This document shows, one piece after another, positions 7,533 through 39,870 of a stretch of 64,000 bases of DNA. Each line of letters starts with the position of its first letter. Position 1 is the stretch's first letter. The notes beneath the pieces are model-generated. The model searched no databases. It saw only the letters and a program-made list of their open reading frames with translations, and was not told where the DNA came from. The position numbers were made by a program, and so were the translations under genes. The DNA is taken from assembly GCA_964016885.1 (NCBI GenBank), contig OZ024744.1, positions 44,950,001 through 45,014,000 of the forward strand. Direction: 5' to 3'. Origin of the DNA: Eledone cirrhosa. Its lineage: Eukaryota.

Positions 7533-10500
7533 TGATGTTATTGTTTTGATTATACGCTATTTCTATATATATATCTTGCCATGTATGAATTATTTTTGTA
7601 TTCCGAGGATTTGCTCAGAGGTAAATAATGTAATGGAGATCGAATGACTCAACTTCGAGCGATTAGCAACCTCTAGACTCACCTGATCAATGAAACAATT
7701 GTTAATACCTGAAATAAAGCCCATTGTTACTCTTCATTCTTTCACTATATATTACTCTAAGTATAACCTACATAGGAATTCCCGCGAACTCGCTGTCTAA
7801 CTATGGAAACATCTTGTTGAGTCAAACAAAGCCGTACGTTAAAACTATCCACGACGCAGAGTACTCACGACCTCTAACTGGATTACCTATAACGATAACT
7901 TGTTATTCCATATACCCAGCTCCCACTAGATTGAGCAACAACATTAACGCACGGCACTAACGTGGAAAAGCACCACATAGGCATGTCCTTGAAAAATATG
8001 CCTATACCTACAAACAAGGACTATACACTCGGCATGATACAGCGTACTAATGACTTCATCCGTCGAATCCGCTGGAAGGCCTATCATTGCAATAAAGGGC
8101 ACGCTAATAACACGGAGCAATTTACAAGGGAACAATACGAATTCAAATCCTGCAAAAATCCACCAAATAACCCCCAGCTCGATGCCTTCGAACTCGAATT
8201 CATGAACATGATAAGTGAAACCATATTCAGAAAACGGACACATCGCAACAAACTGCAAAATGACATCAATGTACTACTAAAATAACTACGCAGCACCAAC
8301 CGTATTATAGTAAAATCTGACAAACATCAAGCGTATACACCATGAGCCTTAATACATACGATAACTTTATACGCCGTGGACTGCACAAAAAATACAAGAA
8401 AACAACACAATCTGCGCTCACTAGCATTAATAAGGAAGGACTTAGCATTGTAAAAAAATTGAAAATATCTTGATAGAACCGAGCCTCTAACCCCTTTTAA
8501 CCGCACATTTAACCTAAAGGATCATAAAAATAATTTCGAAACAGACCCCGCAATTAGATTAATATTCCCATCGAAATCGGATGTAGGTAAAATTAGCAAG
8601 TATATACTAGATAGAGTAATCGGAAAAAATCAAGGATAGACTAGTAATTAAGCTATGGGGTAACACTAACGAAGCAAAAGACTGGTTCAGCAAAATAGAC
8701 AGTAGAGAAACATCCAACTTCGTACAGTTCGACATTAATGACTACTACTCATCCATATCCCCAGTCACCCTAGATAAAGCACTAACCTTTGCCCAGAAAA
8801 ATTCGGACCTTACCTCGGAGGAAATTAAAATAATACTAACTGTTAGAAGAATTATCATTAGATTCGAAAATAGTTACTGGGAACGAAGAAATAGACAGAA
8901 TAGCTTCGATATCACAATGGGATCTAACGACTCAGCACAGGTAACGGACTTAGTGGGAATATATATAGCGCACAACTTACATAAGGAATTCAATAACCTC
9001 CAGGGAGGAATTTATAGAGACGACACACACCTTTTAGCCAAATACTTAAATAATCAAAACATGCAAACATTGCGGAAAAACATCAGAGTCTTCTTCAACA
9101 AACTAGGCATCACTTTCGAACTTAACTCTAAAAAAGCAAATTTCTTACATGTAACACTCAACCTAAACACATGACTAATAGAGCCCTTCCATAAAAATAA
9201 CGAAAATCTAGCCTACATTAGTTATAACTCAAACCACCCCCGATCCATAATTAACTCCATAACACATAGTGTATCCCTCAGAATATCTTGCAGCCAACAT
9301 AGAATTACACATACATAAAATCAACCACCAAAATATCTCTAAAGAAAAGAATCTACCAACATACGCCATAGCACCAAATACAAAACGCAAACACATAACA
9401 ACATCACAACCACAAACACATCAGGGCGCATCACCACAAAACACTAACAGGCCTAAATCTCAACCCACCCACAACAACATACAAAACAGCAACGGTGAAC
9501 CTGCACACAGAAAAGCCTTCAACTGTAACTGCCACCTACCGGATAAGTGCCCACTAGAAAATAGATGCCTGGATTCGAGTATGGTGTACCTGTGTACTGT
9601 AAATTCAGGCAACTTTACTTGGCACTACATAGGTCCACGGCTGGGGAGTTCCAAAAAATGTGGTACGTTCATAGACACTCCATGAAGAACCATAGACTGG
9701 AGAACTCCACAACAGACTTTGAAATATGGAGCTATTCCATATTTTAAGGTACGATAAGATGCTGCTTAACAGCAAAATAGAAAGATCAATATTCTGTACG
9801 CATAAAATAGCTACCAAGTTCACAAATTTTAAACCGCCATGATTCGAGCCAGCAATCCCAAAATTAGAACCGAACCACCTGGATTTTAACGTATGGAATG
9901 CATACCATCACACCGCTATTAGCTGTCAAGCGGTCGACTGGTCAGTAGATCATAAATCTCTTAACATCTCTTCCACCCTCTCTCCCTGAAACCACATCAA
10001 CCCCATTAAGACAAGACAATCAGCAAAACGTTTACCACACACATTTGTCAAACCTCCCTTCACCATCCACCCTTAGCCCTTGGGTCTCATAATAGTATCT
10101 CCCAATTAATCTCTAATTTATTGCTTTTTCTTTTATCTGTCACTACCTCGGACTCTCTGCACGTATCTATGTATGTTTCGAATATGACTTTTCATGTTAG
10201 CACTAAATCCACCACACCATCCTTATACGGACACTTAGTCACCACCACCACTATCATATTCTGTACTTATATGCTCTCACTTATCCTTATTTCTTTATAT
10301 GTCTATTATTTTTCCATTCTTTTACTTTTTTACTGTATCTTTTTACTTATCTTTTACTTTGTACATCTGTAACTTCTTTACCTATTTATCATATATATTT
10401 TATTATTGATGTTATTGTTTTGATTATACCCTATTTCTCTATATATATCTTGCCATGTATGAATTATTTTTGTATTCCGAGGATTTGAACAGAGGTAAAT

Positions 10501-10782
10501 AATGTAATGGAGATCGAGTGACGCAACTCGAGCGATTAGCGGCCTCTAGACTCACCTGGTCAATGAAACAATTGTTAATACCTGAAATAAAGTCCATTGT
10601 TGTACTCTTCATTCTTTCACTATTATTACTCCAAGTATAACCTACATAGGAATTCCCGCGAACTCGCTGTCTAACTATGGAAACATCTTGTTGAGTCAAA
10701 CAAAGCCGTACGTTAAAACTATCCACGACGCAGAGTACTCACAACCTCTAACTGGATTACCTATAACGATAACTTGTTATCC
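7533..10782 (+). mobile_element. Near full-length decayed PLE with two direct ~375-bp pseudo-LTRs (7533-7909, 10407-10782) and a frameshifted RT + GIY-YIG ORF (~7960-9841)
   Basis: SLKNMPIP, IRRIRWKA, LKDHK, QFDINDYYSSI, MGSNDSA, YRDD, CNCHLPDKCPL and MVY...YIG motifs; (TA)n flanks. Confidence 0.92.
10472..10581 (+). ncRNA. HHR-like variant with CCGAGGA core and 81-nt stem II region (second copy 7598-7708)
   Basis: gtatt-CCGAGGA-long insert-GAAA-ACAATTGT palindrome-T-aatac, then AATAAA. Confidence 0.55.
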
Positions 10783-11569
10783 ATATATATATATATATAT
10801 ATATACACTTCGAATGTAGAGAACTTTTTCCTGCTTGCTCTTGTTTTTACCAAAACAATTTCTGTAGTTACGATGGCCATTTACTATAAGAAAGATGGTG
10901 TTGCATAAATCGTTTATTCATTTCAATTATTTCAACGGTTATATATATATACATCTATAAATACAAGTGGAAGCTTAGTAAAATCGAAGCTTTGGCTGTG
11001 GCCAAGCAAAGTCGACCTACAATAGGAATGAGTTAGCAAAGCATCCATAAGGGTCCCTTGAGTAATAACATACGTTTAAATAGCTTGACAAATTGAACAT
11101 TGCGGTAGGCAAAACCCAACCACACAATACCAAAGTAACGAAAGAACTAACAGGTTAAAAAACAGAGCTGGACAAATCGGACGATGTACGTCCGAAGTGT
11201 TTCTATTAAACCGAAATCATTTATCCAACTTACGTAACACGCAAGCTTGTGGTATTCCATGATCAAACAGGGGATTCATTTCATCAACAGGGATTTCGGT
11301 CTGACTCAAACTGGCGTGAACAAACTTAATGCGACCGCTACAGAAGGCAGCCTTCAAACATTTCGTTGTCACGTATTATTTCCAAAAAAGGAAGCAGCCC
11401 ATGGTTTTTGGCGGGTAAATTGAAAGTTTTAACTAAGGAAATAAAAATGTTCGCTCAACATTCCAAATAAAAGACCTCAACCAGATGTTATTAAACATAC
11501 ACAAATAATTAACCAATCAACAGAATTGTCTAATTAAATTGCTTAGTTAATTATTAAATCTAGGAGAAA

Positions 11570-38804: not shown

Positions 38805-38873
38805 GTTTTATCTGATGAAAACACAAATATTATTGCATGATGATGTTTGTTTTTGAAATGCGCATAATAAAAT
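38805..38873 (+). ncRNA. Type I hammerhead ribozyme in the 3' pseudo-LTR
   Basis: gttttat-CTGATGA(38812-38818)-long stem II-GAAA(38855-38858)-ATGCGCAT palindrome-A-ataaaat. Confidence 0.88.
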
Positions 38874-39659
38874 ACATGGAACTCCTTTAACCATCTTTTG
38901 ATCTTATATTATATATATATATATATATATATATATATATATATATATATATATATATATATATATATAACAAAGGAATTGTGGTAAGGAAGCTGAATGA
39001 ACGGTAGCAACGTAATATAAAGTGTTTTACTCAGGAACACTCTCTCTCGCACAAAACCATAACCCCCCCTCCCCAAGTCATATATATATATATAGGAAAA
39101 AGTATGACCCCGACGGCAGAGCTTAAGTCGTTTCGACGGCTATTTCTGGACTAAATTAGAATTTTTATCTGGTGAATAAATACCCGAACTTGTCAAGGAG
39201 GTACTTCCTTATATGGGAAGATTGTAGTTGCCAAGAGGATTGGTTAAAATTTGTTGTAAATACAAATAAGTCTATCATGGAATTTGGTGGGAGGTAGGCC
39301 ACTTAAATAACGAATCTACAACTCTATTTAGCACCACATAAAAACTATCATCATCACTAAATTAATAAAACGAAAATGTTTATCTGTCAAGTAATAAAAA
39401 AAATACAAAGTAAATCCCCGGTTTATTGCTACAATACCTACAGCACAGTGGATATCTCATAAATTCTGTCACCAAGTACATCTTAGTGGTTACTGTCATC
39501 TAGTCGCTACCCTATCACTATATCTAATGTACCCTATAGCAATTTTCAAATGTCAATTCCATACATCTGTATCATATCGGTCTGTTTAACATGCTAGATT
39601 CTCCATTATACTCTATCTTTTACTTACATTGATGTAATTATTTTAATTGTATGCTATCT

Positions 39660-39870
39660 AGTTATTTTATTTTATTATTGATATTATTGTTCTGGTTTAA
39701 TACCACACTTAAAAACCATACCTTATGTATTTCCTTCATTTCACCCGCTCCGATGAAACAGGCTGGTTATAAACAAAGTATTGGAGATCGATTCGCGCAA
39801 AATCAGGCGTATAGCGAACTCTAGACCTGCCAGACCAAAGAAACAATTGTCGAATATTTCTCGAATTATA
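39660..39870 (+). mobile_element. Divergent relative of the 7533/10407 pseudo-LTR with a CCGATGA-core HHR-like motif
   Basis: Shares attgatRttattgtt, ggagatcga, ctctagac and GAAACAATTGT; stem I is poor. Confidence 0.55.

Follow-up and report, generated by a model that had tools for sequence, protein, structure and literature searches.

Penelope-like elements of Eledone cirrhosa carry predicted hammerhead ribozymes with a long, covarying stem II that is independent of the U4C core change

We analyzed 64,000 nucleotides (nt) of DNA from Eledone cirrhosa (GenBank assembly GCA_964016885.1, contig OZ024744.1, positions 44,950,001 to 45,014,000 of the forward strand), hereafter called the window. 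Five motifs in it have the parts of a type I hammerhead ribozyme and lie near the 3' ends of Penelope-like retrotransposons (Penelope-like elements, PLEs), in their pseudo-long terminal repeats (pseudo-LTRs). Their core has C in place of U at position 4 (U4C), and their stem II is long. An earlier note on this DNA had proposed that the long insert accompanies or compensates for the core change. We found that stem II is a conserved, covarying rod in two lineages of these elements, and that it is independent of position 4.

Results

Five hammerhead motifs with a long stem II

The pattern CCGANGA, 61–83 nt, (G/A)AAACAATTGT occurred five times in the window versus 0.00 times expected from 100 shuffles, in agreement with the count in the earlier note. 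The motifs are at 7603, 10477, 30164 and 39750 on the forward strand and at 30093 on the reverse strand, and along the window their stem II lengths are 82, 81, 61, 61 and 83 nt. Each follows the type I order: stem I, CCGANGA, 61–83 nt, (G/A)AAAC AATT GT H, stem I. All five copies have C at position 4; in the contigs of three runs from one sample, T was found at 7604 throughout the aligned depth. The stem II letters that had been described as common to two of the inserts, GGAGATCGA...GCG...CTCTAGAC, were present as claimed. The helix III palindrome had been called identical in every copy, but in the 30093 copy this arm reads AAAACAATTGT, with AAAAC in place of GAAAC (G12A). The palindrome is also no mark of the variant, because short hammerheads with U4 at 2679 and 1704 carry it as well.

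Two of the five copies are intact. The other three are damaged relative to their own families: the 30093 copy has G12A; the 30164 copy combines G at position 17 (H17=G) with an A.A mismatch in place of the opening stem I pair; and in the 39750 copy the 3' strand of stem I, which its family has, is missing. G at position 17 is reported to impair minimal hammerheads (PMC3884650). The copies at 7603 and 10477 (family A) share one alignment with the copy at 39750 (family C) and have similar endonucleases, so the three lineages first proposed are really two, AC and B (Table 1).

Table 1. Long-stem hammerheads and their host sequences in the window
Feature	Position	Strand	Parts and remarks
Family A type I hammerhead, upstream pseudo-LTR	7598..7708	+	AC-type stem II; 94.8 bits with model R1; stem I 7598–7602/7704–7708; core CCGAGGA 7603–7609; stem II 7610–7691 (82 nt); GAAAC-AATT-GT 7692–7702; predicted cut after U7703
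Family A element body	7709..10471	+	Degenerate Hydra-clade Penelope-like reverse transcriptase (RT)/GIY-YIG open reading frame (ORF; stops, frameshifts) and 3' untranslated region (UTR); RWK near 8064; RT segment 8620–9174; CxCx5C linker near 9524
Family A type I hammerhead, downstream pseudo-LTR	10472..10581	+	98.7 bits with model R1; core 10477–10483; stem II 10484–10564 (81 nt); helix III 10565–10575; predicted cut after U10576
Stem II extension, conserved core (family A)	10504..10551	+	Loop 1 GUAAU 10504–10508/AGAC 10548–10551; loop 2 GAGU 10516–10519/AGC 10538–10540; covarying helix between loops 1 and 2; apical hairpin
Two 5'-truncated 3' ends of family B, head to head	29960..30296	.	(TA)n-rich surroundings; usual Penelope-like inverted insertion
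Family B hammerhead, left arm	30009..30098	-	Core CCGAAGA 30093–30087; stem II 61 nt; G12A, predicted inactive
Family B hammerhead, right arm	30159..30248	+	Core 30164–30170; stem II 30171–30231; loop AGAAUC 30183–30188/GAG 30217–30219; H17=G at 30243; first stem I pair broken; predicted impaired
Family C hammerhead, AC lineage like family A	39744..39851	+	66.9 bits with model R1; core CCGATGA 39750–39756; stem II 39757–39839 (83 nt); helix III 39840–39850; C39851

Nine other type I hammerhead-like motifs were seen in the window, with a stem II of 11–36 nt and various palindromic loops III, at 349, 1070, 1704 and 4394 on the reverse strand and at 841, 1280, 2679, 6842 and 38812 on the forward strand. 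The core of the 6842 motif is UUGAUGA (C3U).

Host elements

We searched the 3.0-gigabase genome for relatives of the three families. The first similarity search gave 1,639 (A), 2,252 (B) and 1,329 (C) candidates, of which 40 were scored per family. Judged by their protein motifs and termini, the hosts are Hydra-clade PLEs with the hammerhead near the 3' end, and its placement within pseudo-LTRs, as first described, was confirmed. Family A and its relatives have the motifs RWK, DKT, CxCx5C and CxxC..E..N..CxH and end in (TA)n, and section 11 of PMC8557442 gives RWK, DKT, CxCx5C, CxxC/CxH and (TA)n as marks of Hydra-clade elements. RWK was found in the window element and at the sampled loci L259 and L268, and DKT at L259; neither was seen in two B-type ORFs, which are 5'-incomplete in the sampled loci. 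The CxCx5C linker, and CxxC/CxH around the conserved E and N of the C-terminal endonuclease, are present in families A and C, in four further AC subfamilies and in the B-type loci L284 and L288. Both (TA)n targets and the tandem or inverted arrangement of pseudo-LTRs were observed. Pfam assigned no family to the Hydra-type proteins. One motif had at first pointed to Neptune as the host, and this was replaced by Hydra after the published clade motifs were compared.

A closely related endonuclease lies about 1 kb upstream of family C copies, and therefore A and C belong to one lineage, the AC type. For the B type, a colinear related ORF lies 1.9–2.8 kb upstream in 2 of the 33 loci with long upstream flanks. 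At these two loci no other hammerhead was detected between the ORF and the motif, and one of them has about 1.1 kb of 3' UTR in common with family B. The endonucleases of the B and AC types share about 29–37% identity. AATAAA follows the predicted cut site by 6–9 nt (9 nt in family A), and the commonest (TA)n junction, where copies end, is 49–59 nt beyond it. A protein search in other species gave 8 distant matches among 595 candidates.

Two neighbouring ORFs were rejected as hosts. The 603-residue ORF at 35999–37810, considered for family C, belongs to another element ending near 38905, and the ORF that precedes the B copy L265, PLE-type but of a different kind, is a neighbour. The element at 35999–38905 is a PLE of the Hydra type with an open stretch of 603 residues, a 3' UTR of 1 kb and a hammerhead with a 36-nt stem II at 38812, and it is not the source of the 39750 motif.

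The stem II extension is a conserved rod

We sampled 254 hammerheads from 250 loci, which gave 74 clusters with a stem II of at least 45 nt; because loci were picked by pattern or by similarity, the sizes of these clusters do not measure frequency. From each 88% cluster a single real copy was taken into neutral MAFFT alignments of 24 AC rows (26 clusters less two deletion copies) and 25 B rows. In the AC alignment 82.5% of the cells were paired versus 74.7% after shuffling (reached in 0 of 500 shuffles), and slid controls gave 28–44%. Two-sided changes were seen at 19 of the 30 pairs (1 of 500 shuffles), spread over all three helices of the extension. The B alignment had 85.1% of its cells paired versus 75.0% after shuffling, with 57 two-sided cells (0 of 500). 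Relatedness dominated the raw mutual information. Folding of the stem II domains was also better than that of their shuffles in 24/24 AC rows (mean z −1.7) and 20/25 B rows (mean z −1.1). The idea that the long stem II is a structured domain is thus borne out by covariation in both lineages (24 AC and 25 B subfamilies).

From the core outward, the AC rod consists of 9–11 base pairs (bp), an asymmetric loop, GUAWU/AGAC, a covarying helix of 8–9 bp, GAGU/AGC and an apical hairpin, and the B rod of 7 bp, a loop, AGAGUC/GAGCU, and a further hairpin. The hairpin TCGAGT/ACTCGA that had been described for the 10477 copy is indeed its lowest-energy fold, but over the 24 subfamilies it is the weaker alternative register: 74.8% of its cells are paired and 19/24 subfamilies fail to form one of its 5 pairs, whereas a competing helix that uses the same 5' strand has 87% of its cells paired, with compensation.

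An internal loop made of G-C, A.G, a bulged purine (G) and U-A is common to the AC and B lineages. Its letters are kept in 19–24 of 24 AC rows and 20–25 of 25 B rows while the adjoining pairs swap. By eye, the same loops can be recognised in two families that are more distant, and in one of these the pairs closing loop 1 have been exchanged; the distant-family score with model R1 is 25–30 bits, not above short-stem matches. On B or other long types R1 gives 21–30 bits, again like short-stem matches, and is no proof that AC is homologous to B or to those other types. Columns 51 and 61 of alignment A1, which hold the bulged loop 2 base and a base of the apical loop, can pair in 22/24 rows, as G-U, G-C, U-A or A-U; a tertiary contact, an alternative fold and shared ancestry are all possible reasons.

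It could be argued that any rod-like insert folding out of the way survives in stem II, and that its internal loops serve no function by themselves. Stem II occurs in lengths of 11, 20, 26, 31, 36, 57–63, 75–83 and 85–104 nt, several of them in unrelated families, and long stem IIs with other letters in loop III gave 6,489 matches (control 830), including the B-type GCGC and several unrelated folds. Moreover, short-stem Hydra elements are equally abundant, and the Hydra hammerheads in the published rows are all short. Growth that is merely tolerated would, however, hardly preserve the letters of a non-Watson-Crick loop while flanking pairs swap, nor the same loop in AC and B elements whose endonucleases have diverged as far as these have, and the two distant families (by eye, 25–30 bits) have kept the loops as well, in one case with swapped closing pairs at loop 1. 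We therefore regard this explanation as unlikely.

At least six more families have unrelated stem II folds of 59–104 nt, some of them with C4 (loci L222, L228 and L232, L117:1972-2105, L174:1986-2116 and L133:2119-2259).

Signs of a working ribozyme

The C-N-GANGA and GAAA boxes are present in the families in type I order. Position 17, which was left free in the search patterns, is A, C or U in 199/200 matches and G in one. Stem I covaries in the AC and B alignments, and loop III shifts among palindromes (AATT, GCGC, CATG, GATC). These features outside the search patterns (position 17, stem I and loop III) appear to behave as in working hammerheads.

Another explanation is that the motif is a relaxed or dead scaffold, in which U4C and the missing G10.1-C11.1 pair mean that cleavage is lost and that protein binding alone maintains the fold. 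Many subfamilies are fixed for C4, positions 10.1/11.1 are mismatched in families A, B and C, one B subfamily has a recurring one-base core insertion, and insertion of PAc, a PLE of the Poseidon clade, does not need hammerhead cleavage in vitro (PMC11167929). A dead scaffold is nevertheless difficult to reconcile with the avoidance of G at position 17 (1/200), with the covarying stem I and with a helix III that is kept palindromic. Furthermore, no subfamily with a purine at position 4 was found among 100 listed of 462 such matches (control 35), which were scattered copies or out of register, and no G5A subfamily was found among 100 listed of 285 matches, which were scattered copies. Finally, a U.U at 10.1/11.1 is common among published Hydra hammerheads (File S2 of PMC8557442). 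Loss of cleavage throughout these families therefore seems to us improbable.

The B-type core insertion (CUGAAAGA) was seen in 8 of 100 listed rows, as a fixed variant beyond U4C (G000:C1:40322531-40322759, C1:53021263, C1:86726923 and C2:313756490). A family with a 20-nt stem II has a second CUGAAGA box about 45 nt upstream of its real core (L129 and L144; G000:C1:5760300 and C1:21369192). The pair G10.1-C11.1 is present in 10/25 B-type subfamilies. In alignment A2 (25 B-type subfamilies), C4 occurs in 7/11 rows without G10.1 versus 2/14 rows with it, a tally counted by eye and confounded by ancestry.

Position 4 is independent of stem II length

Genome-wide exact patterns (GAAACAATTGT) were counted, with the reversed pattern as the control. 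A stem II of 55–85 nt was found with C4 in 3,908 matches (control 7) and with U4 in 4,318 (control 9), 8,226 in total (control 16), although some few long matches are upstream cores preceding a short hammerhead. A stem II of 7–37 nt gave 14,369 matches with a pyrimidine at position 4 (control 13), including 6,266 with C4 (control 7). The C4 share is therefore alike in the long (47.5%) and short (43.6%) classes, and the proposal that the insert accompanies or compensates for U4C did not hold. Of the short C4 rows listed, almost every one has a plain 20-nt hairpin. In the sampled loci, position 4 follows the family within the short class: the 11–12 nt type has U4 in 12/12 and the plain 20-nt hairpin C4 in 23/25.

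The families in the window differ in the same way. With the core left free, family A gave 130 matches, and the 100 listed read CTG in 94, CCG in 4, CCA in 1 and another form in 1; the 30 others include the chromosome of the window, where several C4 copies lie. Family B has C4 in 40/40 rows and family C in 28/32, counts that come from top matches to C4 queries and include some duplicates from overlapping loci. The possibility raised at the outset, that the family consensus is CTGA and C4 the decay of single copies, thus applies to the 7603/10477 family and not to B and C, for which pure copy decay is ruled out. CpG decay as the source of C4 runs in the opposite direction and explains a minority only (285 CCA versus 3,908 CCG), while some single U4 rows may be CpG decay. 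When position 4 was masked, the AC tree (43 rows without cluster 65, each cluster giving no more than two per state) required at least 10 changes between U and C, 5 of them forced by strong branches, and the B tree (33 rows) required at least 5, with 3 so forced. These results demonstrate that U4C is independent of the long stem II, and suggest that position 4 is a tolerated pyrimidine that drifts from U to C and back.

An insert coupled to the C4 core and compensating for it is accordingly a reading to which we attach hardly any weight: in families B and C a long stem II goes with C4 in most copies, and distal contacts may offset variant cores (Perreault 2011, PMC3088659), but thousands of C4 copies have only the plain 20-nt hairpin, family A carries the same insert mostly with U4, and the insert persists through many switches at position 4. 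U at position 4, a mark of type I hammerheads, is absent from the five window copies and from 47.5% of the long-stem matches. C4 does not exclude them from the hammerhead class, because it is a published variant tolerated in viroids (PMC3088659, PMC9608096).

It is likewise very improbable that the AC insert is a 47-nt spliceosomal intron (GUAWU ... polypyrimidine-UAG), whose removal would give a shorter stem II as in the Drosophila Penelope hammerhead: GTAWT is near-invariant and (Y)nTAG common over the 24 subfamilies, and PLE pseudo-LTRs are known to hold introns (PMC4209133), but the two candidate splice sites pair with each other, the G of AG is altered in 4/24 subfamilies, a distant family has AC/GU where GU/AC is expected, the B type has no such sites, none of 7 shortened genomic copies, all irregular, was precisely spliced (a weak test, since PLEs retain introns), and no joint at the candidate sites was among those listed for the contigs of three runs from one sample.

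Standard searches and other features of the window

The minimal hammerhead ribozyme (min-HHR) descriptor requires CUGANGA, a stem II of 3–7 bp and a loop of 3–10 nt (PMC4209133), and the extensions described here span 57–83 nt. The Rfam hammerhead families gave no gathering-level match on 10 loci, and no hammerhead was among 150 listed of 263 weak Rfam matches on the window. Standard searches therefore miss the long-stem and C4 forms, as had been suspected.

The top Rfam matches, spurious ones to miRNA families, are perfect foldbacks at 35761–35984 and 40021–40075, which are built from truncated PLE 3' ends in which the helix III palindrome remains and the first core box is missing. The window further contains an intact 1,141-residue RT ORF of a non-LTR element at 18560–21985 on the forward strand (RVT_1, E 8.6e-23; zf-RVT weak), with what we take to be a C-terminal restriction-like endonuclease. 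Long CAC/CAA-rich minisatellite arrays with extreme strand skew lie at 58157–63996 and 56162–56524.

Discussion

We consider it rather probable that the motifs are dimer-cutting, probably protein-assisted PLE hammerheads, in which stem II is a conserved, covarying rod of 57–83 nt that likely serves as a docking module and does not depend on U4C. In a tandem transcript, the ACAAUUGU palindromes of two hammerheads would come together as a single helix III of 8 bp, with cleavage after N-U-H. The extension would spring from the tip of a stem II of 7–11 bp and point away from the core, and therefore it need not disturb catalysis. The conserved non-canonical loop is likely contacted by the RT/endonuclease protein of the element, or else docks on stem I. 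Such a contact site would adjoin the RNA region where reverse transcription likely starts, given that copies end so shortly past the cut. PLE hammerheads are reported to cut weakly as dimers (PMC4209133), and the PAc hammerhead cleaves only in the presence of the element protein, with reverse transcription starting internally, downstream of the hammerhead (PMC11167929).

Several observations weigh against this interpretation. The number of covarying pairs in the B type was not significant (39 of 500 shuffles), the covariation controls ignore relatedness and the structure was drawn by eye from the same rows, and RNAalifold alone found just 6 pairs per alignment. Many unrelated long stem IIs (26–104 nt) exist in the genome, which suggests that length alone is cheap. 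Families A, B and C have U.U, A.C and A.A at 10.1/11.1 instead of G10.1-C11.1, and U4C, although sufficient in vivo, is a natural variant with lowered activity in vitro (PMC3088659). Mutants of the PAc hammerhead did not block insertion in vitro, and PAc RNA truncated to +20 was still functional (PMC11167929), so the start of stem II is dispensable there. Scans of two metagenome and two viral collections for the motif gave no match. The closing probability of helix III in cis was at most 0.1 in every window copy. A weak helix III in cis, together with the predicted −6.4 kcal/mol of the ACAAUUGU palindrome duplex, would fit the dimer model of PMC4209133.

A more far-reaching version of the docking interpretation is that these are natural allosteric hammerheads, in which the stem II module (the loop with A.G, bulge and U-A) lets a telomerase-like RT recognise its own RNA and switch cleavage on, the loop being shared by two deeply split lineages. 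We offer this tentatively and regard it as doubtful.

One PLE hammerhead has been shown to cut only when the element protein is present (PMC11167929). The long and short, U4 and C4 versions that occur naturally in one genome are ready constructs for studying a protein binding site and the control of cleavage. Published descriptors undercount these ribozymes: at least 8,226 long-stem motifs and 6,266 short-stem C4 motifs in this genome lie outside the descriptor of Cervera and de la Peña. U4C is a common natural state here, not a viroid oddity.

Comparison with known systems

PLE hammerheads, the palindromic helix III and U4C were already known, and in comparison with the published sets the long, conserved and structured stem II appears to be new. 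Small PLE hammerheads with a reduced stem III and dimer cleavage were reportedly described by Lunse, Weinberg and Breaker in 2016. In the literature compared we found no description of long-stem or C4 PLE hammerheads, and that 2016 study, lying outside the comparison, may bear on this point.

The elements resemble the Hydra-clade PLEs of Craig et al. (2021, PMC8557442) in their protein motifs, (TA)n insertion, type I hammerhead near the 3' end, short palindromic helix III and frequent U.U opening stem II. In all Hydra rows of that source the core is CUGA and stem II measures about 11–27 nt, whereas ours have 57–104 nt, a conserved loop and either pyrimidine at position 4. The same source also lists two spike-moss PLE-X rows with a long loop 2 of about 30–35 nt, which are marked as deviating and have no conserved module described. 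The minimal PLE hammerheads of Cervera and de la Peña (2014, PMC4209133) likewise lie in both pseudo-LTRs, have a short stem I, a palindromic helix III and a predicted dimer, and make up large families whose truncated copies are dispersed; of the 56 representatives in that set, none has C4 or a long stem II, and the consensus has G10.1-C11.1.

U4C viroid hammerheads (a peach latent mosaic viroid variant, Ambros and Flores 1998; a citrus viroid-like RNA) share CCGA for CUGA and are reported to cleave (PMC3088659, PMC9608096). In viroids, as those sources present it, this is a rare variant of one RNA, whereas here it occurs in at least 10,174 genomic copies and many subfamilies and has been gained and lost repeatedly. 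In PAc (Frangieh et al. 2024, PMC11167929), too, a pseudo-LTR hammerhead lies upstream of the internal start of reverse transcription that defines the 3' end of the element. PAc belongs to the Poseidon clade and has no described long stem II module, and the protein dependence demonstrated for PAc is what we would predict for the long-stem hammerheads of Eledone.

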